Virus record (IMG/VR): IMGVR_UViG_3300045988_011788
Strand: one strand, 5' to 3'
Source of the DNA: a virus
Length of the DNA stretch: 43,337 nucleotides
Shown here in pieces: positions 6,787 through 30,741 of the stretch. How positions within the stretch are numbered: the first letter of the stretch is position 1; each line of letters opens with the position of its first letter. The translations under genes and the position numbers were made by a program. The notes beneath the pieces were generated by a model. That model saw only the letters and a program-made list of their open reading frames with translations, was not told the origin of the DNA and made no database searches.

Positions 6787-6860
6787 CAGGGACGGTTGGG
6801 AATCGAACCCACCCAAGCGGTTTTGGAGACCGCCTCGCCATCCTTGGAACATTCGCCCCT
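6787..6860 (-). tRNA. tRNA-Trp(CCA)-like element with a non-canonical D-arm (possible pseudo-tRNA or tRNA-like module)
   Basis: On the minus strand the acceptor AGGGGCG/CGTCCCT has 7 pairs, the anticodon arm is GCGGT-CTCCAAA-ACCGC, and the T-arm is GGG-TTCGATT-CCC. The D-region TGTTCCAAGGATGGCGAG does not form a 4-bp stem, and there is one extra nt at the T/acceptor junction. Confidence 0.5.
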
Positions 6861-7645: not shown

Positions 7646-8075
7646 GGCGCGCCACCTTCCGCTTCACCCACGCCCACAGGTTTCTCCACGGATGGGATTC
7701 TGCGTAATTGGCGCGCTGCTCGGCGTTGTAGCGCTTGTCACGCATTACATCAATGACCGTCCCCTTAAAAGCAAGATCGTCGTTCGCCCGCCCAAGCGCC
7801 GCCTCAGTATCGGCGAGCTTATTTCGCAGCACATCTGCGTCCGCTTTCAGGTTTGCGATCTCGTTCTCTCGGGTGATGGCCTCGCCGTTCATCTGGTCAA
7901 GCTTTTCCGTCAGCGTGCCGATTTCTCCGCGCAGTTTTTCATTTTCCTCGGCCAGTTTTACTCCGGCCTTAAAATGTGCCGCCGCCTCGGCTTCCGCCGC
8001 TTCCTGCCTTTCGGTGGCTTCCTCCACCATCTTCGCCATCTGGTCTTTGGTGTACTTCTTTACGTTGATGCTCAT
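7638..8075 (-). CDS. Coiled-coil hypothetical protein
   Basis: 145 aa with long A/E/K-rich heptad-like segments. Linked to neighbours by ATGA coupling. Confidence 0.55.
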   Translation of the reverse strand: MSINVKKYTKDQMAKMVEEATERQEAAEAEAAAHFKAGVKLAEENEKLRGEIGTLTEKLDQMNGEAITRENEIANLKADADVLRNKLADTEAALGRANDDLAFKGTVIDVMRDKRYNAEQRANYAESHPWRNLWAWVKRKVARHE

Positions 8076-8236
8076 AGCTTGGCTCCTTCCATTTTCATCT
8101 GTTCTTCCCGTCCCCGGTCGCTCACGATGCTCACGACCTTGCAGTCACCATATCGCTCAATATCCATGGCGATGCGCTCCTTGATGCCCTGCGCGTCAGC
8201 GGCGGGGACGTTGGCTTTAATCGTGATCGTCAGCAT
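8072..8236 (-). CDS. Small hypothetical protein (54 aa)
   Basis: Hand-translated: MLTITIKANVPAADAQGIKERIAMDIERYGDCKVVSIVSDRGREEQMKMEGAKL. The stop overlaps the next ATG (ATGA). Confidence 0.4.
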   Translation of the reverse strand: MLTITIKANVPAADAQGIKERIAMDIERYGDCKVVSIVSDRGREEQMKMEGAKL

Positions 8237-8459
8237 ATACGTTCCCTTTCACGTGCTCTTTCCACCACAGATATTCTTTGCGCTCTCGTCGATATTCAAA
8301 AATCAGGCTTTCCGCCTTGCAGATATCGCGGAATCTGTTGCTTGCTGCAATCCATGCAGTCTCAACCAGCCACCATAAAAAGCATAACGCTGCAAGAATC
8401 GCTGCAATGCCGCCAATCGCTATAAAGAACATTCCAACGCCTTCAACAAAAGATTCCAT
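8217..8459 (-). CDS. Small membrane protein
   Basis: 80 aa with one long hydrophobic stretch (MFFIAIGGIAAILAALCFLWWLV). Confidence 0.55.
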   Translation of the reverse strand: MESFVEGVGMFFIAIGGIAAILAALCFLWWLVETAWIAASNRFRDICKAESLIFEYRRERKEYLWWKEHVKGNVYADDHD

Positions 8460-8462
8460 TCG

Positions 8463-8753
8463 TTACACCTCCTTCGGCTCGCCGTAGCTGCAAAAATCGG
8501 TGCTGCCCACATTGCGTCTATTACATGGCGCGCGCCTGTTGTGACACGTCAGCGTCCCCGGCTTACCGTATCGCTGGGTAAGCTCTGACGGCAATGTGCT
8601 GTGCGCGCAGTCCTTGCACCGCGTCACGACCACAGCATCGACGGTGGGAGCAGCGGCCACGATGGGCAAAGCAATTTCGTCCCTATCTGCGTTGTCGTAC
8701 CACGGCTCGTCATCAAGCTTTTCCCATAGCACGTCGCCATCAATCAGCCGCAT
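8463..8753 (-). CDS. Hypothetical Cys-rich protein
   Basis: Start refined to MRLIDGDVLWEKL. Carries CKDC...CHNRRAPCNRR...C cysteines. Confidence 0.5.
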   Translation of the reverse strand: MRLIDGDVLWEKLDDEPWYDNADRDEIALPIVAAAPTVDAVVVTRCKDCAHSTLPSELTQRYGKPGTLTCHNRRAPCNRRNVGSTDFCSYGEPKEV

Positions 8754-8949
8754 CGCTGTCACCTCCGTCCATTTTTGCAGAGTTCTCCACAAAGTTGCGG
8801 ACTCTGGCCGCGCAGGAGAGGCACAGTTGTTTCTCCGCAGAAAATGGTGTCTTAAAATTCACAACGCCGTAGTGATTGAAATCCAGATTCACACCGTCAA
8901 CCTCGTAGTCAATCTCGCGCCCGCACATATCACAGAACACTTTAACCAT
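8740..8949 (-). CDS. Small zinc-finger-like protein
   Basis: CDMCG ... CLSC pairs. The ATG shares a base with the upstream TGA. Confidence 0.5.
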   Translation of the reverse strand: MVKVFCDMCGREIDYEVDGVNLDFNHYGVVNFKTPFSAEKQLCLSCAARVRNFVENSAKMDGGDSDAAD

Positions 8950-13604: not shown

Positions 13605-13837
13605 GTGTGTACCTCCCCGAAAGCCTCTTCAAATGTCAGCCCCGTCGCAGCAAGGATTGCCTTGATAACGCCGATGCTGAATTCGTTCTTCCCCGTTGTC
13701 CATCGCCACACGCAGAGCGGGGAGACGCCGATCTTCTTGCTCAACTCCGGCGGTGTCATGCCCGATGACTGCAAGGCTTTCTTGAGCTGCGGATATACGA
13801 CCGTCTTAAACGGCACGTGGTTCGTGTTCTCACTCAT
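13601..13837 (-). CDS. HTH DNA-binding protein (paralog of 13359..13604)
   Basis: 78 aa with the same pattern as the neighbour, indicating a tandem duplication. Confidence 0.65.
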   Translation of the reverse strand: MSENTNHVPFKTVVYPQLKKALQSSGMTPPELSKKIGVSPLCVWRWTTGKNEFSIGVIKAILAATGLTFEEAFGEVHT

Positions 13838-14294
13838 TTTCCTGCACCTCTCCGAGCAGCGTCCCGACGGTCACGCCCAGTGCTTCGGCAATGTACTGAT
13901 ACGTCGGCATGTAGCTGATGCATCGTCCCTCTCTGAGGTTTAAGATGCTACTGCGCGATAATCCCGCCTTTTCTGCAAGCCCCTTGATACTCATGCCCCG
14001 CAGCGCACTCCATTTCTTGATGTTCTCGCCGATCTCTTCCGGCGACAGCATGCCTTTTTTCGCCGGTGGGGATTCCGCCAGAATATCGCTCAACGTCAAG
14101 CCAACGCATTCGGCGTATCTATATAGCGTCGACACCTTCGGATAGCTCGCGCCCTTTTCGAATTTGGCAATGGTTGACTGTTCTGTGCCCATCATATCGG
14201 CCATCCGAAACTGGCTGATATTTCGCATTTTGCGAATATTTTTGAGCCGTTCGCCCAACTCTTTTTCTGTCAACATCTTTTCTTGCTCCCTCAT
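13830..14294 (-). CDS. Tandem double XRE-HTH regulator
   Basis: Two Cro/C1-type HTH units in one 154-aa protein (LKNIRKMRNISQFRMADMMG... and IKKWSALRGMSIKGLAEKAGLSRSSI...). Confidence 0.8.
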   Translation of the reverse strand: MREQEKMLTEKELGERLKNIRKMRNISQFRMADMMGTEQSTIAKFEKGASYPKVSTLYRYAECVGLTLSDILAESPPAKKGMLSPEEIGENIKKWSALRGMSIKGLAEKAGLSRSSILNLREGRCISYMPTYQYIAEALGVTVGTLLGEVQENE

Positions 14295-14488
14295 TTCAGC
14301 CGTTGATAGCGCCGCGTCTTGAAATGGCGCGCGCTCAAGTAATCGTCTTTCTCCTGCGCTTCCCGCTGCTCTTCATCCCTCGCCGCGTTGTACTTGGCGA
14401 TATCCACCTGATAGTGCGGGCACTCGCTGTGACAGCCCGGATGCCTCACAGGCGGCTTGCAGCTGTGGCAATGCTCAAATGCTGTCAT
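14291..14488 (-). CDS. Small Cys/His-rich protein
   Basis: 65 aa: HCHSCKPPVRHPGCHSECPH followed by a charged tail. Confidence 0.5.
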   Translation of the reverse strand: MTAFEHCHSCKPPVRHPGCHSECPHYQVDIAKYNAARDEEQREAQEKDDYLSARHFKTRRYQRLK

Positions 14489-21986: not shown

Positions 21987-22014
21987 CTTTTCACCTCCAA
22001 ATACTAAGTTTTAC

Positions 22015-22042
22015 TTGACAACTTAGCGAACCGTGATATTAT
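22015..22042 (+). promoter_or_regulatory. Candidate sigma-70-type promoter reading toward the CI-like gene
   Basis: TTGACA-16 nt-TATTAT. Confidence 0.5.
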
Positions 22043-22121
22043 AAGAAGTGCCAACAAACTAATAATTTCGACAGTCCGCTAAGTATCAAGGGGGCTTACT
22101 TTTTTATTGCCCTATGCTTAC

Positions 22122-22150
22122 ATTATACTAAGCTCAGCTTAATATGTCAA
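22122..22150 (-). promoter_or_regulatory. Consensus sigma-70-type promoter reading toward the Cro-like/early operon
   Basis: On the minus strand, TTGACA-17 nt-TATAAT (perfect consensus). Confidence 0.7.
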
Positions 22151-22207
22151 GTTGAACTTTGTATTTTGTGTGACTTCGGCGGTTTGTACAAAGGGAGGCT
22201 TAATATT

Positions 22208-22573
22208 TTGGACGGTCCTACGCTTGTTGATATCGTCGAACGCGAGCTCGTTGCTCGACATATAAAAAAGGCGGAATTTTATGCCGCAACAAAAATATCA
22301 AGTGCAACATTTTCACAGTGGAGAAATAACATCTATTTCCCCTCTGCTGCTAATATCAAAACTATTGAAGAATATTTGGGGATTTCAATTTCTTATTCTG
22401 TAGCCGATAAAGCCGCAAAAAAAGAGCGCCCCACCGATGGTGAAGCGCTCATTTCTGAATTGCCCGAAGATATTCAAAAGCTTATTTGGATTTGCGAGTC
22501 AAATCCTGACCTTGCTGCTGCTCTACTATCTGTTGCGCAGCAGATCGAAAAAGGTCAAGTTGCTGGGGAGTAA
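22208..22573 (+). CDS. CI-like HTH repressor (no S24 peptidase domain)
   Basis: TTG start 8 nt after AGGGAGG. HTH (KKAEFYAATKISSATFSQWRNNIYFPSAANIKTIEEYLGI). AT-richer than the genome backbone. Confidence 0.78.
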   Translation: MDGPTLVDIVERELVARHIKKAEFYAATKISSATFSQWRNNIYFPSAANIKTIEEYLGISISYSVADKAAKKERPTDGEALISELPEDIQKLIWICESNPDLAAALLSVAQQIEKGQVAGE

Positions 22574-22731
22574 ATCTCGAAATTGTAATAATCAATTCCT
22601 CTACCGTCGTCATCCTCTCTGCCCTCCGTTCGCTCTCATATAATAAAACAAGTGTTCTATCGCGGGTTAGTATAACACTAATTTTTAATTGATTCAATGT
22701 AATTTAAAATATAAAATTAGGTGAATTTGAT

Positions 22732-23742
22732 ATGCCCATTACCGTATATTTTGAACACGGCCGCGTTGTGGAGCTGTTTCCAGAACCAAATCAATCGTAT
22801 TACGACGTGCGCGATAAGATCAACGCGGCGACTGATATAGTGTCTGATGGAATAAAATACGATTTGACCGATAAGCAATCGATTTATTCTATCGCTATTC
22901 CTGACTATACAAAAGTACGCAATGTCCCCACTTCAAAAGAGTTAGGCCCAACAGGATATCTTGAATATGTGTTGAGAATGCACGCTGGTTTTCTATGGAA
23001 TACCGGAGATTACCAGCTATCAATGGCTTGCCTTGAAAAATCTTGCCAGTTGATGACATATTCCACACTTGGGTGGGAGCGAAAAGACTTTTATAGGGTT
23101 GTCAATTCTTATATTGAGCTTGGTCGATTTAAAAAAGCAAAAGAGTGGAAAGCCTGGATAGATGCCCACACGGAATCTCCGGAAGACTATGCAAAAGACG
23201 CATTTGCAAGAACGCTTGAATCGTGTAAAAGACTTAAAACTGATTTAGTAGAGGTTGGCGATTCAAGCGCGTGCTGTGGAATTTGCGCGAAGTACCGGAG
23301 ACGGATATATAGCTTATCTGGAAAAAGTTGGAAGTTCCCAAAGTTTCCAGATGATTTCCATTTTCAATGTGCTCTTGGGATATTTGCCTATATTGATGGT
23401 GTTTCCGAGCCGTCTTTCAAATCCATTAGTCCATCTCTGTATAGCAAACGACCGTTTCGCGATGATCGAACAGAAGAAGAAAAGGAAAATTATAGACTTT
23501 GGTTAGAACGTGTTGAAAAGTCTTACAATCCGATCAATGAGCCGAATCTAAATCATATTATTTATTATTGGTTCAAGCCTAAATTCCCCGACGACTTCCC
23601 AAAATCTCTTTCTGGTTTTTCTCGCATGCGAAACGGGAACACAGCAAATTATCAAAAGCTGGCACAGAAGATTGAGGATGCGGGGTATACCATACCTAAA
23701 TCATTAGATGAGGTCGCAGAACGTGAAGAGCGGGAGAATTGA
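22732..23742 (+). CDS. Orphan 336-aa protein in an AT-rich island of the immunity region
   Basis: Clean ORF with an SD (aggtga) and its own terminator. Contains CCGICAKYRRRIYSLSG...HFQC and a duplicated KFPDDF motif. No family recognised. Confidence 0.75.
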   Translation: MPITVYFEHGRVVELFPEPNQSYYDVRDKINAATDIVSDGIKYDLTDKQSIYSIAIPDYTKVRNVPTSKELGPTGYLEYVLRMHAGFLWNTGDYQLSMACLEKSCQLMTYSTLGWERKDFYRVVNSYIELGRFKKAKEWKAWIDAHTESPEDYAKDAFARTLESCKRLKTDLVEVGDSSACCGICAKYRRRIYSLSGKSWKFPKFPDDFHFQCALGIFAYIDGVSEPSFKSISPSLYSKRPFRDDRTEEEKENYRLWLERVEKSYNPINEPNLNHIIYYWFKPKFPDDFPKSLSGFSRMRNGNTANYQKLAQKIEDAGYTIPKSLDEVAEREEREN

Positions 23743-23770
23743 AAAGTTGCAAGGCGGTATAGCTTAGATT

Positions 23771-23810
23771 GGCCCCGCCGCCCTCTGCAACAAACGGCGG
23801 GGCCTTTTCG
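23771..23810 (+). terminator. Rho-independent terminator
   Basis: GGCCCCGCCG-14 nt-CGGCGGGGCC followed by TTTTCG. Confidence 0.8.
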
Positions 23811-23973
23811 CAGCCAGCGGGAAGCGGTCGCCGCTGCATGTTTTGACCATACTCCGCTTTACCTTACCACTTCAATACCAAGACCTTGCAACACGACGGC
23901 ATTCGACCGCGTTCGACAGACCCACTTTTGGCACCCAAAACGGGCAGAAACCGGAAAAGTTAAGGTGATGTAA

Positions 23974-24387
23974 ATGAACATTCAAGAGCTGTGTAGAATC
24001 CGTAAAGAAGAACTGAAACTGACTTACCACGACATTTCCGACGCTTCCGGCGTGCCGCTGTCCACCGTGCAGAACTTCTTTTCCAAAATGTCGAAAGCCC
24101 CGTCCATTTACACCGTCGCGCCGATCTGCAAGGTGCTCGGTATATCCCTTGACGAAATATTCGGGATTTCCGAACACTTGACACCAACCGAGGAAACCTT
24201 ACAGGCGCGCAACGATGAGCTGGAACGCCACGTGGACGCAAAAGCAGACACGATCGAGATCATGCGGCGCGGAGTTCGTATCCGAAACGGCGTGATTGCT
24301 ATAATGTTCCTCATTATCGTTTTTCTCGCTGTGTGGTGCGTGTACATTGATTTTCATTGTATAGATTACGGATTTTGGAGGGGCTGA
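23974..24387 (+). CDS. Membrane-anchored XRE-HTH protein (C-terminal TM helix)
   Basis: N-terminal HTH (LTYHDISDASGVPLSTVQNFFSK...), a coiled segment, then the TM helix VIAIMFLIIVFLAVWCVYI. Only 1 nt separates it from the integrase ATG. Confidence 0.8.
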   Translation: MNIQELCRIRKEELKLTYHDISDASGVPLSTVQNFFSKMSKAPSIYTVAPICKVLGISLDEIFGISEHLTPTEETLQARNDELERHVDAKADTIEIMRRGVRIRNGVIAIMFLIIVFLAVWCVYIDFHCIDYGFWRG

Positions 24388-24388
24388 C

Positions 24389-25504
24389 ATGGCAAATTGC
24401 ATCAAATGTAAAGCAGCGCTGCCGGATGGCGCGCTGTTTTGTCCTATGTGCGGCAAAAAGCAGGTCGCCGAAAAGCGCAAAGCGCTCAAGCGCGCCAACG
24501 GAACCGGCACGGTGTATAAGCTCTCAGGCCGCCGTGCGCGCCCGTGGGTCGCCGCGAAAAACAGGGTGGTCATTGGATACTACGAGCGCAAAACAGACGC
24601 ACTGGACGCATTGGAACGGCTGAACGGCAAGCCCCTGACGGAGCGATACAATATGACCTTTGCCGAGGTGTTTGAGGCGTGGAAGGCCGAGCACTACAAA
24701 GAGATCGGCAAGCAGGGCATCCAATCGTATGACGGCGCGTACAAGGTATTTGCCCCGCTGCACGACCGTAAATTCCGTGATCTGCGCGCCGCTGACTTCC
24801 AAGCCGCGATTGACCCGTACATGAGCAAAAGCCATTCCACCGTCAGCAAATATAAGCAGCTTATTACCCAAATGTCGAACTGGGCTGTGCGGGAGGAAAT
24901 CTGCACGGCAAATTTTGCAAGGTTTGTCCGCCTGCCGGAAAATATAAAAAAAGAAAAGGATATCTTCACCGAGGAAGATATCCAGAAACTCGAAAAGGAC
25001 GGCAGCGACGCGGCGAAGATCGTCCTGATGCTGTTGTCAACCGGTATGCGCATCGGCGAGTTATTTAACCTTCCTATCGCTGATTATCACAAGACTTATG
25101 TGGTCGGCGGAGAAAAGACAGACGCAGGCCGCAACCGTATCATTCCCATCCGCCCGGAAGGTCGGCAATATTTTGAGCATTTCGCTGCGCGCGCAACAGG
25201 CGAGCTGCTGATCTCTGGTTACAGCGGCCAGAAGGTTATTGAGAATTTCCGCAAGCGCGATTTTTACCCGCTGCTCGACCGTCTCGATATAGCCAAAAAG
25301 ACGCCGCACGCCACGCGCCATACTTACACGTCCCGCGCCGTCAAGGAAGGGCTGGCCCCAGAAATGCTGCAAAAAATACTCGGTCACGCCGATTATTCCA
25401 CCACGGCAAACATCTATACACATATTGACGCCGAAACATTGGTGTCCGCCGTTACTGACGCGTTACTAACAAGCCAAGAAAATGGCAAAAAGAAAAAGCC
25501 CTGA
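24389..25504 (+). CDS. int: Tyrosine site-specific integrase with an N-terminal zinc ribbon
   Basis: C-terminal catalytic region HATRHTYTSRAV...LGHADYSTTANIYTHI. The N-terminus is CIKCKAALPDGALFCPMCG. Confidence 0.92.
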   Translation: MANCIKCKAALPDGALFCPMCGKKQVAEKRKALKRANGTGTVYKLSGRRARPWVAAKNRVVIGYYERKTDALDALERLNGKPLTERYNMTFAEVFEAWKAEHYKEIGKQGIQSYDGAYKVFAPLHDRKFRDLRAADFQAAIDPYMSKSHSTVSKYKQLITQMSNWAVREEICTANFARFVRLPENIKKEKDIFTEEDIQKLEKDGSDAAKIVLMLLSTGMRIGELFNLPIADYHKTYVVGGEKTDAGRNRIIPIRPEGRQYFEHFAARATGELLISGYSGQKVIENFRKRDFYPLLDRLDIAKKTPHATRHTYTSRAVKEGLAPEMLQKILGHADYSTTANIYTHIDAETLVSAVTDALLTSQENGKKKKP

Positions 25505-25529
25505 AACCGTTGCGTTTCAAGGCTTTTTA

Positions 25530-25574
25530 TGGTGCGCGGTACAGGACTCGAACCTATGACCCCATGCACGTCAA
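25530..25574 (-). other. attP core: 3' half of a tRNA-Val(GAC) gene (anticodon loop to CCA)
   Basis: The minus strand reads TTGACGT-GCATG-GGGTC-ATAGG-TTCGAGT-CCTGT-ACCGCGC-A-CCA. The 5' partner of the anticodon stem is absent. It lies 26 nt downstream of int. Confidence 0.7.
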
Positions 25575-25704
25575 TTAAGTGCGAAAGCTAAATTGCCGGA
25601 ATATTGTAGCAATAGCGCGGAATAGTTCGGCATAATTGAAACATATTTTGGTTAAACCCGATGCCGTTCTGTGCAATTCCTTTACGGTTGCTAACAAATT
25701 ACTA

Positions 25705-26025
25705 TCACGTTACCAGTTTGCGCATGACGCTATTATAGACGCGCTCGTTTACAATTTTCAAGCTGTCCATCAGCTCGTCCATGATCTCCCATGCCTTGTC
25801 CGGTGGAACATCTGCCACTGCGCGCAGAAAATCGCTGTCGCCGTATGTTTCGACGCTAACCGGCGCGGGCGCTGCGGAGTATGCCATTGGCAAAGCCCTC
25901 TCTCTGCTGCCGCTTTGCTGGTCACGGATGGCATACAGCACGGCAAGGCGCTCATAGTTTGTCCAACTGGATTCCTCTGTTTCAAGGCGGGCTATCCAGC
26001 GCTTGACCTCATTCTCGTCGACCAT
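25705..26025 (-). CDS. Hypothetical protein (accessory cassette)
   Basis: 106 aa: MVDENEVKRWIARLETEESSW...DSDFLRAVADVPPDKAWEIMDELMDSLKIVNERVYNSVMRKL. Confidence 0.6.
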   Translation of the reverse strand: MVDENEVKRWIARLETEESSWTNYERLAVLYAIRDQQSGSRERALPMAYSAAPAPVSVETYGDSDFLRAVADVPPDKAWEIMDELMDSLKIVNERVYNSVMRKLVT

Positions 26026-26040
26026 AGGGGCGCACCCCCT

Positions 26041-26448
26041 TTAGCCCTCAATCGTGTCCATGCAACGCTGGATGGCTCTGCGGATGCTTTCGTCGTCGGC
26101 GTTGTCCAGCATTTCCTGCAATTGGCGTTTCATGTTGTTGATGCCGCCATCACGGGAATAGTGGCCGCGCACATAATGCGTGCCGCGTCTTGCATTGGGC
26201 ATATCGCGGTCATAAGCGCCGCGCATACCCGACTGCCAGTCTCCGTCGCGGGAATAGCGGCGAGAATAGTCTTCATCGCGGGAATAGCCGTCGTCCTCCA
26301 ACATCTCAATTTTATCGATGTTTTTGATGGTGTCCGTCAGCTTGTGCGCAATTTCGAGATCGCCCGCGCCAAGCTCACCCTTACGTGCCAGCTCGTCGAG
26401 TTCGTCGCACAGCATATTACGCAGATCATACATTGCTTTCTTGCTCAT
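26041..26448 (-). CDS. Hypothetical protein with an R/D/Y/S-rich low-complexity core (accessory cassette)
   Basis: Start refined to MSKKAMYDL. Helical ends flank YSRDEDYSRRYSRDGDW...HYSRDGG. Confidence 0.6.
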   Translation of the reverse strand: MSKKAMYDLRNMLCDELDELARKGELGAGDLEIAHKLTDTIKNIDKIEMLEDDGYSRDEDYSRRYSRDGDWQSGMRGAYDRDMPNARRGTHYVRGHYSRDGGINNMKRQLQEMLDNADDESIRRAIQRCMDTIEG

Positions 26449-26461
26449 GTCCATTCTCCTT

Positions 26462-26884
26462 TCACGCGATTCTATCAACCGTCAGGTTCGAGTTAGCGAA
26501 GTTGACGGCCTGAGTGCTGGTGTTTTCCATTGCGACCGTCAGGCAGCAGCCTTTCGGAACGCAGACCTGTGCGGAAACATAAATGTTAAAGTAGTTTTCT
26601 ACCGCCGCAGGCGTGACGGTAGCTGTTGCACTGGTCAGCGGCTCTCCGTTGATGGCAAGCGCCGCCGTGATGGCCTCAACCGTGCCTCCAGTGGGAATGG
26701 CGATGTTTCCGCCATAGGAGACCCGAAACAGAGCGCGGTTTTGATTGGTGAGGCCGCGCAGCGTGACAATGCCTGCGCCCTGGCGATGCACGATACAGGG
26801 CTTGCTATTGACCGCCGTTCCGGTCAGTGGGACGTTCTGGCCGGCAGGGACCAAAGCAATGATAGAATTACTAAATTCAGCCAT
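26462..26884 (-). CDS. C1q/TNF-like jelly-roll protein resembling the BclA C-terminal domain (accessory cassette)
   Basis: Start refined to MAEFSNS behind aaaggag. A beta-strand pattern ending ...AVNFANSNLTVDRIA resembles the exosporium BclA-CTD layout. No collagen tract. Confidence 0.55.
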   Translation of the reverse strand: MAEFSNSIIALVPAGQNVPLTGTAVNSKPCIVHRQGAGIVTLRGLTNQNRALFRVSYGGNIAIPTGGTVEAITAALAINGEPLTSATATVTPAAVENYFNIYVSAQVCVPKGCCLTVAMENTSTQAVNFANSNLTVDRIA

Positions 26885-26891
26885 ACTGGTA

Positions 26892-27089
26892 TCACTCCTT
26901 TCTCTGATTTGCCCCAAAAGGGGCAAACGCACCATTTGCAATCATTTCCGCGTAGCTGGGCGCAAATAATTCGTCCGCTTTACGCAAAAGATCGGCATAA
27001 TTGCTAAGATCGTACATGCTCATTTCACTCTTGTCCAGAGTTGCAATGTGATCAACAAATTCCTGTTTGAGTTCGTCAACTGTTTTCAC
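26892..27089 (-). CDS. Small acidic helical protein (accessory cassette)
   Basis: 65 aa, GTG start 8 nt after AGGAAGGA. Confidence 0.5.
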   Translation of the reverse strand: MKTVDELKQEFVDHIATLDKSEMSMYDLSNYADLLRKADELFAPSYAEMIANGAFAPFGANQRKE

Positions 27090-27127
27090 AAAATCATTCC
27101 TTCCTAAAGGGGTCGAAATCGACCCGT

Positions 27128-27161
27128 TTAAAATACAGCGGCGGAGCTATTGCCCCGCCGC
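27128..27161 (-). terminator. Rho-independent terminator after the Cys-tailed membrane protein gene
   Basis: On the minus strand, GCGGCGG-10 nt-CCGCCGC followed by TGTATTTT. Confidence 0.55.
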
Positions 27162-27230
27162 GTTGTGATTAGTATCGGCACGGGGCCGACCATTTTCGTG
27201 AGGTCACGAAAAAGCTATGCTATGCAGTTG

Positions 27231-27956
27231 TCAGCAGCCGCAACCGGAACCGCAGCCACCATAGCCGCTGCCCGCCCACGGGTTACAGGTAATGTAAGCC
27301 GGTGAAGGGCACGGGCGAAGCTGCGAAATGAGGTAGTTATTCTGTGCAGCCTGAGACGCGGCCAATTTGAGATTCTGGTTCTCGGTCTGGAGATCGGACA
27401 GCTTGCTCTGCGTGAGGAAGTCGAGGATGGCACGGCTGTTCTGGTTGTTCGCGTCAATGATGTCGCGGGCTGCCGTGTTGACCGTGTTGCGAGTGTCGCA
27501 CGCCTGCGTCGCCATATCATAGCGCACCTGCGCGATAGCTGCGCGATTCTCGCAGCAGCAATTTGCGGCCTGCATCTGCATGGCGTTGAGCTGCTGCATA
27601 AGCGCCGCCTGCTGGTTTGCGCGGGACAGCTCGGCATTGCCGAAGCCGGTGTTGATGGCCTGTGTGGTCGTAGCAAAGCCGCCAGTAATGGCATTGTTCA
27701 ACGCAAAGGTGGAATCGCAAATGCCATTTGCAATACTGTCGAGCTTGCGCTCAACGCTCGCAAAGTCAGATGTCAGAACGTAGCCGTCCATCACACCGCC
27801 GCCGTTACCGTTGCCAAATCCGTTGCGGCCCCAGCCGAAGAGGAAAAGAACGATAATCCAGATCCAGCTGTCGCCCCACATACCCATACCGCCGCCGTAA
27901 TTGTTCGCGGGCGCGACCGGCATAGTCATCATGGGAGCACCGTTGGAAAGAGACAT
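27231..27956 (-). CDS. Single-pass membrane protein with an N/Q/A-rich coiled region and a Cys-rich tail (accessory cassette)
   Basis: 241 aa. Gly/Met-rich N-terminus, TM helix WIWIIVLFLFGW, an internal CCC, and a C-terminus ending PCPSPAYITCNPWAGSGYGGCGSGCGC. Confidence 0.7.
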   Translation of the reverse strand: MSLSNGAPMMTMPVAPANNYGGGMGMWGDSWIWIIVLFLFGWGRNGFGNGNGGGVMDGYVLTSDFASVERKLDSIANGICDSTFALNNAITGGFATTTQAINTGFGNAELSRANQQAALMQQLNAMQMQAANCCCENRAAIAQVRYDMATQACDTRNTVNTAARDIIDANNQNSRAILDFLTQSKLSDLQTENQNLKLAASQAAQNNYLISQLRPCPSPAYITCNPWAGSGYGGCGSGCGC

Positions 27957-28008
27957 AGTATCACTCCTTTGAAAAATTTTTATTTATCAAATCGTGGCCA
28001 CGATAAGA

Positions 28009-28212
28009 TTAGTGGAATAAGGGTTCAAACTGCTTTGCCATAGATTGAAGTTGGTTTAACTCCTGCTGGCTCATAGCGCCAGATTGCAAAAGCTTTTCGA
28101 CTTCCGCTTTGGGGTCACCCTGAAAATTTGCCCTAAACTGTTGAAACTGTTGCATCATCTGAAAAAAGCCGTTCCCGCCACCAAGAGCGCCAAAAAAAGG
28201 ATTACTCATCAT
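28009..28212 (-). CDS. Small Gln/Phe-rich protein (accessory cassette)
   Basis: MMSNPFFGALGGGNGFFQMMQQFQQFRANFQGDP.... The start overlaps the upstream stop. Confidence 0.55.
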   Translation of the reverse strand: MMSNPFFGALGGGNGFFQMMQQFQQFRANFQGDPKAEVEKLLQSGAMSQQELNQLQSMAKQFEPLFH

Positions 28213-28651
28213 CCTCGTCCTCCTCAACCTTGCGCTTTTTCTTGCTCTTTATTTCGCCCACAAGCGCTGCCAGAGCGTCAAACTCTTTACGGGTGACAAA
28301 TTCCACGCTCTTTTCCTGCGGCGCTGTGCGGGGCGTTTCTGCGCGCTCTACAAGATCGTAAATTTTAAGCGTCGGCTTCCCACTTGCATCCGCCTGCTTG
28401 AGATACACAGTCGGCGCGGTAGAATCCCACAGCGCCACAGCAGAGTTGGGCGCGATGAGATAGCCTCTCGCCTCCTGTTCGCCGCTTACCCACTGCACGC
28501 CGCCCTGTGCGATAGGGTTCTGTTGCACTGGCTGCGACATGGGCTGCTGCATGGGCTGCATCTGTGGTTGCTGCATCTGTCGCATCTGCATGAGGTTGTC
28601 CGGCATCGGCTGCGGATAATAGGGATTGAAATAGGGATATGCCATGTTCAT
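28202..28651 (-). CDS. Protein with a Pro/Gln/Met-rich N-terminus, a beta-rich core and a Lys/acidic tail (accessory cassette)
   Basis: Start refined to MNMAYPYFNPYYPQPMPDNLMQMRQMQQPQMQPMQQP... behind GGAGG. The tail is KSKKKRKVEEDEDDE. Confidence 0.62.
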   Translation of the reverse strand: MNMAYPYFNPYYPQPMPDNLMQMRQMQQPQMQPMQQPMSQPVQQNPIAQGGVQWVSGEQEARGYLIAPNSAVALWDSTAPTVYLKQADASGKPTLKIYDLVERAETPRTAPQEKSVEFVTRKEFDALAALVGEIKSKKKRKVEEDEDDE

Positions 28652-29031
28652 TCCTCCGTTTCTTTGACCCAGTAATAAAGCGGGATTTCGTTCTCGCTGT
28701 TCCAACTGTCATAGATCACGCCGTCTTGCACGCACACTACATGTCCAGAGAGCGCGAGAATATACGTCCCGCGTGGGTGCTCATCGGCAAACTTACCGAC
28801 CGTGTAGCAGTCGGGACAGGTGTCCGGCATAATATAGCGCCGATAGCCAAGCGACCGCAGATATGTGCCCCAACAGGCGTTTGCGTTGGGCAAGTCGCCG
28901 TCTAAGTATCCCTGTATGCACAGAGACAAATAAACTTCGCCCCAGTCCTTTCCTGTCGCCTTGCAGATTGCGCGCACGGTGCAGTCGGACACGTTGCGCC
29001 CGTTTGGATTTGGGTTGAAATAGCTATACAT
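28648..29031 (-). CDS. Putative papain-fold Cys-His-Asp enzyme (peptidase or transglutaminase-like) (accessory cassette)
   Basis: Start refined to MYSYFNP. Candidate triad: NVSDCTVRAI (Cys), LSGHVVCV (His), VIYDSWN (Asp). No signal peptide. Confidence 0.45.
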   Translation of the reverse strand: MYSYFNPNPNGRNVSDCTVRAICKATGKDWGEVYLSLCIQGYLDGDLPNANACWGTYLRSLGYRRYIMPDTCPDCYTVGKFADEHPRGTYILALSGHVVCVQDGVIYDSWNSENEIPLYYWVKETEE

Positions 29032-29146
29032 GGAACATCTCTGCAAAGTAGACGTATGTTCTCAGCTCGTCAGGATCAGGGAACAGCGTCAAAATGTCCA
29101 TCGCCATTTGCTCAGTAAAGCCCAAAGCTAAAAGTCGGTCGTACAT
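29024..29146 (-). CDS. Possible 40-aa leader ORF of the accessory cassette
   Basis: Hand-translated: MYDRLLALGFTEQMAMDILTLFPDPDELRTYVYFAEMFHV. Strong SD aaaggaggtg. The stop overlaps the next ATG. Confidence 0.35.
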   Translation of the reverse strand: MYDRLLALGFTEQMAMDILTLFPDPDELRTYVYFAEMFHV

Positions 29147-29176
29147 CGCCGCACCTCCTTTGTTGTGTCCATAGTA

Positions 29177-29203
29177 CAAAAAAATAGGCGCTCAAAAGCG
29201 CCC
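29177..29203 (-). terminator. Rho-independent terminator separating the late/lysis operon from the accessory cassette
   Basis: On the minus strand, GGGCGC-TTTTGA-GCGCC followed by TATTTTTTTG. Confidence 0.6.
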
Positions 29204-29324
29204 ATAAAGTGTATGAAAAGTGCGTCGAAAACCGTCGAACGGTTCCCCTTGCCTTTTTACGTGAAATGTGATATTTTAATTTTACAGGTCATTCCCGGCC
29301 TGCTTTTACACAAGAGAAATGGCC

Positions 29325-29585
29325 TCACCGTTCGGTGGGGCCATTTCTTTTTTCATATACTTCTGATGCCATTTTGCGGTATGCGCGCCGCCGGTATTTC
29401 TTCACTGCGTCAACAGATAGGCTTTGCTCCATTGCCACCTGCACGCAGCTTTTCTGCCGCACGTCGCACTCAATGATACACGCCGCCTCGTCAGCTGGCA
29501 GCTCGAAGGATAAGATATACGCCACGGCCCGCTTGGGGGCCATAGAGGATAATTGCGCGCGGATTGACCTGTGCTGACTGTCCAT
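29325..29585 (-). CDS. Small sigma-70 region-4-like / HTH regulator
   Basis: 86 aa: ...AVAYILSFELPADEAACIIECDVRQKSCVQVAMEQSLSVDAVKKYRRRAYRKMA. No clear SD. The longer track ORF overlaps the endolysin gene out of frame. Confidence 0.45.
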   Translation of the reverse strand: MDSQHRSIRAQLSSMAPKRAVAYILSFELPADEAACIIECDVRQKSCVQVAMEQSLSVDAVKKYRRRAYRKMASEVYEKRNGPTER

Positions 29586-29662
29586 GCCCGTGTAGGGCTT
29601 GCAGAGGCGCTTGCGCGTGGGCTTTCGCCGCCCGCTCCTTTCTGTGCCCAAATCGGGCACCG

Positions 29663-30280
29663 TTATTTTGTCGCTCTCTGGATCATTGTCACGACTTCCT
29701 GCCGCGTGATAAGTCTCTGCGGCGCGCTGCCGTCCGTGATGCCCGCCGCTTTTGCCGCCGCCCAGTCTTTCGCCGCCCACGAAGAGACGGGCTTGGTGCC
29801 GAGCTGTGCCAAATAGGCATCCATCATCTTGTTAAACGTTGCCTGATCCATGTACTCCTCCATTTCCGGCGGGTACTTGCCCGCCAAAATCATGCTCCCT
29901 GTGTACTTGAGGTGGTCGTCCCACTGGAAATGCGGGCGGTCGGGGAATTTCTTCCAGTCGCCGCCCCACGAAAAGCCGACCTGCTTGCCGATCTGCCCGC
30001 AGCGGGCGAAGAACGACGGATCGTCGTACTCATGCCCCTTGACGTTTTTGCAGATGTCGAACGCCAGCCCAGCCTTGACACCGTGGAACGTCGGGCGCGT
30101 CGCGGACTTTGCCGCGTAGCCGTTCTCGGCAAGATAGCGCTGGTACTCGTCGTCTCGTACTGTCTCCGTCACGAGAACCGGAAGCCCCGCCTCCTTGCAG
30201 AGGGCGAGAAAAATGACACAGTTTGCGCGCACGTCCGCCCGCAGGTCAGCAATGTCCCTACTGTGATACATCGCTGTCAC
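29663..30280 (-). CDS. Endolysin, peptidase M15 (VanY-like) catalytic domain plus a C-terminal wall-binding-like segment
   Basis: HGVKAGLAFD and DRPHFQW zinc-ligand motifs. The C-terminal WAAKDWAAAKAAGITDGSAPQRLITRQEVVTMI looks SLH-like. An alternative start MYHSRD lies at 30271. Confidence 0.85.
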   Translation of the reverse strand: MTAMYHSRDIADLRADVRANCVIFLALCKEAGLPVLVTETVRDDEYQRYLAENGYAAKSATRPTFHGVKAGLAFDICKNVKGHEYDDPSFFARCGQIGKQVGFSWGGDWKKFPDRPHFQWDDHLKYTGSMILAGKYPPEMEEYMDQATFNKMMDAYLAQLGTKPVSSWAAKDWAAAKAAGITDGSAPQRLITRQEVVTMIQRATK

Positions 30281-30503
30281 CCTTGCCGTCCTCGTCCTTG
30301 TTTTTGTTGTAGCTGGACGTCGACACGCCGATGAGCGCGCCGATAAACAGCGCCACGGCGCTGATGGTGGTCGTCACCTGCTCGGTGTAGCCCCACCCCC
30401 ACACACCCGCGAGGGCGGCGTAGAGGCCGGAGCAGGCGGGCAGTACGATGAGCACGAGCCACTTGAGCACATCGTACACCTTGTTACTCATTTCAAATTT
30501 CAT
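30258..30503 (-). CDS. Holin (Dp-1-like family)
   Basis: Start MKFEMSNKVYDVLKWLVLIVLPA behind aaaggaga. Two TM segments and a charged tail. Confidence 0.78.
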   Translation of the reverse strand: MKFEMSNKVYDVLKWLVLIVLPACSGLYAALAGVWGWGYTEQVTTTISAVALFIGALIGVSTSSYNKNKDEDGKGDSDVSQ

Positions 30504-30741
30504 TGTTGTTCTCCTTTCGTTTCCGTCCAACGATAATTTCTACCAGTGTCAGAAGCCCAGTAAAGGCTTCGATGATTCCTCCCGTACCCAGCAGGTACGG
30601 GAAGATGTTGTCCCACTGCCACCCCTTAATGCTGTAAAAGATGACCGTGTAGATCACAAAAGCGGCGATAAAAATGCCAACGATAATCAAAATGATGTTC
30701 CTCGTTCGCAATTTCGATGCCTTTTTGATAAGGCGCTTCAT
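30493..30741 (-). CDS. Two-TM membrane protein (second holin/antiholin candidate)
   Basis: Start MKRLIKKASKLRTRN overlapping the upstream stop (ATGA). Two hydrophobic helices. Confidence 0.6.
   Translation of the reverse strand: MKRLIKKASKLRTRNIILIIVGIFIAAFVIYTVIFYSIKGWQWDNIFPYLLGTGGIIEAFTGLLTLVEIIVGRKRKENNNEI

Follow-up and report, generated by a model that had tools for sequence, protein, structure and literature searches.

What kind of system is encoded by the block of small genes that lies between the lysin gene and the phage attachment site (attP) of the virus in IMG/VR record IMGVR_UViG_3300045988_011788? This stretch of 43,337 nucleotides, referred to here as the window, holds a temperate siphophage genome in its excised form. 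An earlier note on its sequence had set apart nine minus-strand genes, p1 to p9, as a candidate self-assembling surface or spore-layer cassette. The nine open reading frames (ORFs), the two terminators and attP all lie where that note placed them. However, the block does not start at the 40-aa ORF p1, as had been proposed, because a gene upstream of the first terminator, here called sig, heads the same module. Together, sig and p1 to p9 constitute a mobile, self-contained ten-gene phage accessory operon, which recurs in thousands of phages of the gut and in this genome forms the 3' end of the late/lysis transcription unit. The operon appears to fit no described system and to represent an undescribed but very common phage module.

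The evidence for such a unit comes from gene neighborhoods. Iterated hidden Markov models (HMMs) were built for every cassette protein and searched across 88 diverse loci containing a p5 relative, comprising 80 loci from a scan of one genome per species together with annotated phages. A p3 gene was recovered at 78 of these loci, a sig-like helix-turn-helix (HTH) gene at about 60, p7 at 49, p2 at 35 and p8 at 34. Relatives of p4 were found at 32 loci, invariably between p3 and p5, whereas p9 was carried by 19, p6 by 8 and p1 by only 3. The genes lie on one strand in the order sig-(p1)-(p2)-p3-(p4)-p5-(p6)-(p7)-(p8 or DUF7841)-(p9), where DUF7841 is a Pfam family (PF25223), and in a few loci p2 is found downstream of p5 instead. 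The core of the module is sig, p3 and p5. Additionally, 80 close relatives were collected from IMG/VR, chosen only for a p7 of at least 90% identity, and these contigs carry near-complete sets: p8 and p9 on 79 each, p5 on 76, p2, p3 and p4 on 71 each, sig on 68 and p1 on 67. A relative of the window's lysin was present within 6 kb on 23 of the 80 contigs, and a relative of its integrase on 13. The fixed order in the diverse loci and the near-complete sets in the close ones bear out the expectation that the genes are conserved together.

Most hosts of the module are Clostridia. In phage genomes it occupies at least five different positions. It follows the lysin and precedes the integrase in Dulem virus 33, and in bajarodcaudo virus 5 it stands between the holin and lysin genes and a divergent replication module. 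In Dulem virus 35 and bajarodcaudo virus 2 it is inserted between the portal/minor-capsid and scaffold/major-capsid genes, in Dulem virus 36 it comes after the receptor-binding protein, and in Dulem virus 39 it comes after the integrase. When the two nearest upstream genes of the diverse loci were classified by Pfam, lysis functions formed the commonest class (holins, Amidase_2, M15, PG_binding_1, GH25, NlpC/P60 and CHAP); besides these, genes for portal, minor capsid or tail proteins occurred, as did host genes in small number. Downstream neighbors were integrases or serine recombinases, scaffold/capsid genes and host genes. The slot between lysin and attP, which the earlier note regarded as the classic moron position, is genuine here, and integrated copies likewise place the module at the prophage end. 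It is, however, only the commonest position, since several other phages use head, tail or post-integrase sites.

A cultured example is the prophage of Vescimonas fastidiosa MM35 (NZ_AP023416.1, about 250.9-254.5 kb), in which sig, p1-p5 and p7-p9 follow holin and amidase genes and adjoin host genes. Phages of the Clostridium perfringens CPD1 type were considered as an argument for carriage by virulent phages, but this was rejected because CPD1 is reported to carry an integrase. Divergence within the module is uneven: among the close contigs, the median identity is approximately 71% for p5, p4 and sig versus approximately 92% for p7, p2, p1 and p9. The faster divergence of the former group is what would be expected of a specificity or arms-race component. 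Furthermore, compared with 25707-27956 of the window, MT835513.1 retains p6-p9 at 88% nucleotide identity, whereas its p5 reaches only 45% amino-acid identity. The sharp boundary of this mosaic at the internal hairpin indicates that two sub-units of the module recombine independently.

Within the window, the genes are tightly packed (Table 1). The p1 and p2 genes overlap by 8 nt (ATGTATAG), p2 and p3 share an ATGA, p3 and p4 overlap by 11 nt, and the gaps between p6 and p7, p7 and p8, and p8 and p9 measure 7–15 nt. Independent gene calls on contigs with identical or near-identical sequence returned p1-p9 proteins of exactly the sizes listed in the table. Matches to PHROG families were obtained for seven of the nine ORFs (E 2.6e-9 to 5e-51), which identifies them as real genes rather than chance ORFs; p9 matched no Pfam or PHROG family. 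All nine products are acidic or near-neutral, with net charges from -6 to +1. The compositions described in the earlier note were confirmed, as was its statement that the proteins lack signal peptides: neither a signal peptide nor a lipobox was found in the module ORFs, and a hydrophobic segment occurs in p5 only.

Direct sequence searches of p1-p9 and sig against Pfam, NCBIfam, PADLOC and the PDB returned nothing except the HTH of sig, and no PADLOC model matched any of the ten proteins at E values up to 0.1. Profile searches placed no component in a characterized lysis, virion, toxin or defense family, in keeping with what the note had supposed. The catalogued families of the module proteins or their stand-ins are DUF7841 and PHROGs 16490, 21718, 20016, 3754, 22984 and 28802. 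All are labeled 'unknown function', and neither the libraries nor the literature that we searched describes them as one unit. Literature searches on DUF7841, on the PHROG numbers of the module, on BclA-like phage proteins and on phage-encoded spore proteins found nothing on the module, so that the gene set does seem not to have been described before, as the note had surmised.

Table 1. Genes and sequence elements of the module and its flanks in the window.
Feature	Position	Strand	Description
sig	29325..29585 (ORF 29328-29585)	minus	86-aa basic HTH protein of sigma-70-region-4 / LuxR-GerE type; first module gene, between lysin and hairpin 1
Hairpin 1	29176..29205 (stem 29205-29184)	minus	terminator-like, GGGCGCTTTTGAGCGCC + T7, between sig and p1
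p1	29024..29146	minus	40-aa acidic protein
p2	28648..29031	minus	127 aa, phrog_3754, conserved Cys17-His97-Asp108
p3	28202..28651	minus	147 aa, phrog_21718, core protein
p4	28009..28212	minus	67 aa, Gln/Phe-rich, phrog_22984
p5	27231..27956	minus	241 aa, phrog_16490, core bitopic membrane protein
Hairpin 2	27128..27161 (stem 27161-27138)	minus	terminator-like, GCGGCGGGGC...GCTCCGCCGC + T-run, after p5
p6	26892..27089	minus	65-aa acidic protein
p7	26462..26884	minus	140 aa, phrog_20016, stand-alone BclA_C
p8	26041..26448	minus	135 aa, phrog_28802, Arg/Asp/Tyr/Ser-rich middle
p9	25705..26025	minus	106-aa acidic protein, last gene of module
Tail-fibre genes (DUF6273, CBM_5_12)		minus	upstream of the Dp-1-type holin
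Phage_holin_Dp1 gene	30261-30530	minus	Dp-1-type holin, precedes M15 lysin
M15 lysin	29666-30280	minus	directly before the module region
attP core	25521-25582	minus	3' fragment of a tRNA gene; 3' border of module
Tyrosine integrase	24389-25501	plus	converges on module

The head gene provides the only recognizable domain in these direct searches. The window copy of sig matched Pfam Sigma70_r4_2 at E 5.7e-5 and 23.1 bits, just missing the cutoff of 25.7 bits, and it matched the HMM of its own family at E 1.3e-21. Among 45 relatives, Sigma70_r4 was matched by 21, Sigma70_r4_2 by 20 and GerE/LuxR by 12. The protein has a net charge of +5. Family members are 70–90 aa long, their alignment spans region 4 alone and sigma region 2 is missing from sig, and we therefore regard it as a stand-alone region-4/LuxR-type HTH protein rather than a sigma factor. 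In 51 loci, sig lies directly upstream of p1, p2 or p3 and on the same strand, often with 1–50 nt between its stop codon and the following ORF. A second, weak match to the sig family was observed in the early/middle region of the window (13833-14372, minus strand; HMM E 4.4e-4). This could be a further regulator of the region-4 type, or else the HTH of a small terminase.

Conserved hairpins split the operon into sig, p1-p5 and p6-p9. Both hairpins of the window were recovered by a terminator scan. At the hairpin 1 site of loci L098 and L095, whose sig is 52% identical, a hairpin is found with compensatory changes, and of the 34 gaps of at least 60 nt between sig and the next gene, 23 contain a strong hairpin with a T-run. 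Similarly, in 52 of 86 loci the 160 nt after p5 include a strong GC hairpin with a T-run behind it, compared with 11 of 264 random windows. Given that the stem sequences vary, it is the structure that is conserved. Each hairpin of the window ends only approximately 40 nt from the next ribosome-binding site, and there is no terminator in the interval between lysin and sig. The operon thus seems to prolong the late/lysis transcript at its 3' end and to contain two stops that are either attenuating or regulated.

This layout resembles the Q-PR'-tR' region of lambda, in which a regulator gene is followed by a short leader ending in an intrinsic terminator and then by the controlled operon. The analogy is one of arrangement, as sig does not belong to the Q family and no promoter was identified in the leader. 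A riboswitch or other known RNA element in the sig-p1 leader was rejected, since the leader had no Rfam match and a fold z-score of only -1.7. A sigma-E/K-like CATACACT box upstream of hairpin 1 was also rejected because it is not kept in L098 and L095, and no promoter for mother-cell expression from sigma-E or sigma-K could be reliably assigned. In L176, a variant of the same phage, a divergently oriented XRE-type HTH_3 gene (93 aa) and an 86-aa gene lie between sig and p1 (7755-8830) and replace the terminator leader. Three ATGACCA repeats just upstream of p1 in this variant may be an operator, and the repeats together with the XRE-type pair hint at separate control.

The core membrane protein p5 belongs to a family of at least 7,941 clusters at 90% identity, and one exact p5 sequence was found on 271 contigs. 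An acidic N-terminal tail of approximately 28 aa leads into one transmembrane segment flanked by Gly-rich stretches, which is followed by an Asn/Gln/Ala/Thr-rich C-terminal domain with a median of 10 Cys. Alignments revealed an invariant CCC, then RPCPxPAY and finally a GCGC-type C-terminus. No Pfam or NCBIfam family, holin families included, matched p5, and a search of the PDB with the family profile was empty. Two candidates for the N-terminus were discarded: a double-glycine leader, for which there was neither a model match nor a conserved leader pattern, and a YjcZ-type 'tiny TM' sporulation protein, which likewise gave no model match.

The reach of p5 extends well beyond Clostridia. Relatives were identified in many crAss-like phages (Crassvirales), in Bacteroides phage C3_41T2LP and in two Methanomassiliicoccales viruses, one of which has a record with the same PHROG number as p5. 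In the crAss-like phage cr52_1 (locus L168), gp23 is a p5 homolog that keeps the transmembrane segment, the CCC motif and a RPCPVPAY...GCGCGY end. The gene contains two in-frame TAG codons, as do its structural neighbors, and is preceded by a gene for a DUF7841 protein with an Arg/Asp/Tyr tail. As a separate observation, the p5 homologs of cr52_1 and of the Methanomassiliicoccales virus vir215 (L180) lie a few genes downstream of a tail protein and reverse transcriptase pair, which constitutes a diversity-generating retroelement, and the cr52_1 block reads TAG as sense throughout.

The other core protein, p3, was predicted by AlphaFold2 to comprise an unstructured N-terminus rich in Tyr, Pro, Gln and Met, a small beta domain at approximately residues 50–100 (pLDDT about 97) and a C-terminal helix at residues 119–144; the C-terminus carries a Lys-rich stretch and then an acidic tail. 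At E values up to 0.001, its family amounts to 3,362 clusters when clustered at 50% identity. The 150 best-matching relatives measure 68–223 aa, and thus no large fusion partner was seen among them. The p3 model found no fold match in the PDB, and the family profile search of the PDB was empty. Foldseek matches of p3 to tailspike fragments covered 50 residues at E values of at least 0.1 and were judged uninformative. Scanning the members of the p3 and p2 families one by one against Pfam yielded scattered single matches only.

Two further proteins share a low-complexity character with p3. The small p4 matched its PHROG at E 2e-23. In alignments, p8 consists of two helices around a low-complexity middle (GYSR, HYVRGHYSR) rich in Arg, Asp, Tyr and Ser, and its family profile retrieved nothing from the PDB. 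A DUF7841 protein is encoded downstream of p5 in 29 of the 88 loci, mostly those without p8, and both occur together at L106 and L113. The DUF7841 proteins carry an Arg/Asp/Tyr/Glu-rich stretch resembling that of p8. Nevertheless, the idea that p8 or p9 is a diverged DUF7841 protein was rejected, the hhalign probability being below 4%.

The earlier note had likened p7 to the C-terminal domain of BclA, and this was supported. The window copy alone had no significant Pfam match, and its PHROG match reached E 5e-51. Among 43 relatives, however, 11 matched Pfam BclA_C (PF18573; best E 8.3e-9), and the top five PDB matches of the family profile were all BclA (E 0.015–0.095). In the exosporium nap of Bacillus, the matched domain (PDB 1WCK, 2Z5W) forms the trimeric, C1q/TNF-like tip; its length of about 135–140 aa is also that of p7. 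In contrast to BclA, the phage protein consists of this domain alone, without collagen-like GXX repeats or the N-terminal exosporium-targeting region, and GXX repeats are also missing from the neighboring 65-aa p6. Moreover, p7 is phage-encoded, including in the prophage of a genus described as non-spore-forming. Two 208-aa proteins, P0516 and P0518, join p6(1-51) in frame with an upstream extension of the p7 ORF, which ties p6 to p7. In the window (26885-26945), p6 shares 50 nt with this extension, the two being read in different frames. In several independent contigs, an A-run shorter by 1 nt (GCAAATG to GCAATG) creates the 208-aa p6-p7 fusion, which may reflect a simple polymorphism or hint at frameshifting.

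The earlier call of p2 as a papain-fold-like Cys/His/Asp protein was likewise supported, although its papain-like matches are weak. The residues C17, H97 and D108 are invariant in 121 sequences, and in the AlphaFold2 model (pLDDT 95) C17 opens helix 17-26 and H97 lies on strand 97-102. This geometry is shared with papain-like peptidases and amidases such as Josephin, AvrPphB/C58, Tae4 and C39, which have a Cys at a helix start, a His on a strand and an Asp approximately 11 residues further on. However, p2 has no significant sequence or structural match to a solved or curated family, so that the triad of clan CA is present while a significant likeness to any curated member of the clan was not found. 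The best Foldseek match in the PDB was Josephin-2 (E 0.45, TM-score 0.45), and the weak neighbors comprised papain-like proteins (Josephin-2, AvrPphB, Tae4 and TssM among them) as well as folds of other kinds. Neither Pfam, NCBIfam nor PDB sequence searches gave a match, and the family profile search of the PDB was also empty. The confidently modeled fold of p2 is new compared with the PDB, where papain-like proteins appear only as weak neighbors.

The p2 family is nonetheless widespread among phages. It comprises 1,847 clusters at 90% identity, its PHROG match reached E 5e-36, and 22 BFVD matches at E <1e-3 were obtained, mostly to unnamed phage proteins and one to a protein labeled thioesterase domain-containing; the matches came from phages of Pseudomonas, Enterococcus, Sphingomonas, Cellulophaga and others. 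The next BFVD match, to a Bacillus-phage protein labeled 'Peptidase C39 domain-containing', had an E value of 3.5e-3. The catalytic spacing presumably resembles that of C39 domains. Despite that labeled match, the assignment of p2 to the C39 peptidases was rejected, as it found no support in Pfam or the PDB.

These properties bear directly on the proposal that the operon builds a layer similar to a spore coat or exosporium, one that would self-assemble in the mother cell from proteins without secretion signals. Several features recall such a layer. The p7 family is BclA_C-like, sig is GerE-like in 12 of 45 members, the hosts are mostly Clostridia, and a Cys-His enzyme could in general act in cross-linking. 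In general composition, the Cys-rich p5 is reminiscent of ExsY, CotY and CdeC, and the Tyr-, Gln- and Arg/Ser-rich proteins of CotC, CotG and GerQ. The likeness seen in the BclA_C domain and in the coat-like compositions is real, yet it falls short of membership. No module protein is homologous to any coat protein family, and p7 lacks both the collagen repeats and the N-terminal targeting motif of BclA. The Vescimonas type strain has been described as non-spore-forming, and the genus is predicted from genomes to be likewise (PMC11334427), yet the full module is carried by a Vescimonas prophage. Carriage by this genus, the occurrence of p5 in Crassvirales, a Bacteroides phage and archaeal viruses, and the presence of the p2 fold in phages of Pseudomonas, Sphingomonas, Cellulophaga and others, with its frequent occurrence in phages of Gram-negative hosts, together make a role in a spore layer highly improbable.

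Starting from the observed anatomy and distribution of the module, we infer an assembly, its topology and a function that might account for them. The reading that we tentatively favor is a membrane-anchored multiprotein assembly that acts on the envelope of the infected or lysogenic cell, through superinfection exclusion, envelope modification or protection of progeny. In this scheme, p5 would insert into the cytoplasmic membrane through its single transmembrane segment, and its long Cys-rich helical domain would serve as the anchor and scaffold of the assembly. The low-complexity proteins p3, p4 and p8, or elsewhere the DUF7841 proteins, would join p5, as would p7, a putative trimeric jelly-roll of the BclA_C type that is probably docked through p6. 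The Cys-His-Asp enzyme p2 may process or cross-link one component of the assembly, while sig would set the expression of the operon and the hairpins would grade the dose of its products. Viruses with p5 relatives infect Gram-positive, Gram-negative and archaeal hosts alike, and for this reason the most likely target is the cytoplasmic membrane itself rather than the wall or a spore layer.

Several groups of observations were counted in favor of this envelope assembly. These include the fixed gene order, the translational coupling, the p6-p7 fusions, the presence of sig upstream in 51 loci and the conserved hairpins. The exchange of the module between phage backbones, its five or more positions, the fast divergence of p5, p4 and sig, and the MT835513 mosaic were also taken into account. 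The transmembrane segment of p5, its acidic N-tail, its approximately 10 Cys and its spread across host domains were counted as well. Finally, the prophage-end position in lysogens and the divergent XRE-type regulator pair upstream of p1 in one variant were included. Superinfection-exclusion proteins and morons such as HK97 gp15, lactococcal Sie2009 and T4 Imm offer the closest parallel, in that they are small bitopic membrane proteins in prophage-end or accessory slots, are exchanged between phages and evolve faster than their neighbors. They differ in being encoded by one or two genes rather than five to ten in a fixed order with a dedicated HTH gene, and no sequence similarity connects them with the module.

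Other observations weigh against the envelope assembly. Known superinfection-exclusion systems consist of one or two proteins, not five to ten. There is no homology evidence for any function, the PHROGs that were matched being labeled 'unknown function', and charge bias does not discriminate between the membrane topologies of p5. Neither a scan nor inspection by eye found a sigma-A promoter after either hairpin, and without such a promoter the operon may simply be expressed by read-through from the late promoter. Furthermore, the crAss-like p5 homologs lie in late/structural, TAG-recoded blocks, which would also fit a role in the lytic cycle or the virion, and crAss-like phages are regarded as virulent.

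A lysis or egress accessory, in which p5 would work with the holin and endolysin, either adjusting when lysis occurs or breaking through an outer layer, and p2 would attack the wall as a cysteine amidase or peptidase, appears rather unlikely. Lysis genes are the commonest upstream neighbors in the diverse loci, and the post-lysis arrangement recurs in the window, Dulem virus 33, bajarodcaudo virus 5, V. fastidiosa and CPD1; yet accessory genes of any kind insert by default at the end of the late operon, and the module is also found in head modules and after tail genes or the integrase, far from lysis genes. In the window, no terminator separates lysin from sig, but a dedicated DNA-binding protein would be unusual in a lysis cassette. 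The peptidoglycan amidase Tae4 is among the weak matches of p2, and the p5 homolog of cr52_1 has a LysB/FtsL-like gene two genes upstream of it; however, the module proteins match no Pfam holin, spanin or lysin. The layout of p5, with a short N-tail, one transmembrane segment and a large C-terminal domain with conserved Cys, and the adjacency of its gene to lysis genes are shared with the T4 holin T and antiholin RI and with the lambda i-spanin Rz. It differs from these proteins in that Pfam and PDB similarity is lacking, a Dp-1-type holin is already present and the module is often away from lysis genes. Although p5 would have the layout of an i-spanin in a two-component spanin, no lipobox protein is available as an o-spanin lipoprotein partner, and the hosts, mostly Clostridia, are mostly monoderm.

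A virion-associated set is similarly doubtful. Here the p7 trimer and the coiled domain of p5 would form a dispensable fibre or decoration, or the low-complexity proteins would be packaged and ejected. Heads of the BclA_C/C1q type are a frequent feature of phage fibres, and the module always shares the orientation of the late genes. Two phages, Dulem virus 35 and bajarodcaudo virus 2, carry it between portal/minor capsid and scaffold/capsid genes, and in a third, Dulem virus 36, it follows the receptor-binding protein. The crAss-like p5 homologs are also found among TAG-recoded structural genes under depositor labels such as 'spike' or 'viral fiber', but these labels reflect generic coiled-coil similarity, and the PDB profile search was empty. 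The N-terminal transmembrane segment of p5 and the HTH regulator at the head of the module would be out of place in such a set. Identical p5 proteins occur with different distal tail and lysis genes (L176 versus L170), and exchange between backbones is unexpected for a part that docks on a specific virion. A membrane-tethered condensate or viral factory, in which p3, p4 and p8 or DUF7841 would phase-separate on p5 while sig tethers DNA to organize replication or assembly, is quite improbable. Three or four module proteins have Gln/Tyr/Pro- or Arg/Asp/Tyr/Ser-rich stretches, that of p3 being predicted to be unstructured, and the module includes a basic DNA-binding protein. Composition is nevertheless the sole basis of this idea, which leaves the roles of p7 and p2 unexplained, and in most phages the module, which is at the late end of the genome, is separate from the replication genes. 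The likelihood that remains beyond these five readings belongs to an explanation not yet imagined.

Cutting across these readings, we regard it as a serious possibility, though we stop short of calling it probable, that sig-p3-p5 is an undescribed multi-protein system. In such a system, the Cys-rich bitopic p5, common to viruses of Clostridia, Bacteroidota and methanogens, would nucleate a new virus-built structure at the cytoplasmic membrane, to which BclA_C trimers, low-complexity proteins and the Cys-His-Asp enzyme would be accessory. The families of the module are carried by abundant human-gut prophages, and if this holds true the module would rank among the more frequent unknown gene sets of the gut virome. 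That a fixed set of genes of such frequency has no assignable function leaves a clear gap in phage biology. Whether it serves exclusion, lysis control, a virion add-on or something new, the module likely matters for phage–host dynamics in the gut. As a cultured lysogen, Vescimonas fastidiosa MM35, carries the whole set, the module is directly testable.

The 3' border of the module in the window is formed by the attP core. On the minus strand, approximately 25530-25567 corresponds to the last part of a tRNA, comprising the T-arm and the 3' side of the acceptor and terminating in CCA, the core shares 87–96% identity with many other, unrelated phage contigs, and ARAGORN called no complete tRNA there, which together identify it as attP. 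In integrated copies, p9 is directly adjoined by host genes, which are metabolic ones in copies of the same phage. In two of the integrated copies (L171 and L173, 12500-20726), the prophage end abuts a second integrative element that carries a second integrase, DUF6076, AAA_25, Mob_Pre, a BglII-type restriction-modification pair and AIPR; prophage and element apparently lie in tandem at one shared attachment site.

Three further features of the window were observed. A GC hairpin (GTGCCCGATTTGGGCAC) lies within 29586-29665, directly 3' of the lysin stop codon, and has a T-run on the plus strand only; it may thus terminate convergent or antisense transcription and not the late operon. The phage also encodes a tRNA-Trp (CCA) at 6787-6860 on the minus strand. 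Finally, a low-GC island (39–44% versus approximately 54% elsewhere) separates the early genes from the integrase at 22000-24000 on the plus strand. It encodes an HTH protein (22166-22573) and a 336-aa protein (22732-23742) with a weak TPR match only, and looks like a separately acquired accessory or lysogeny-control block.

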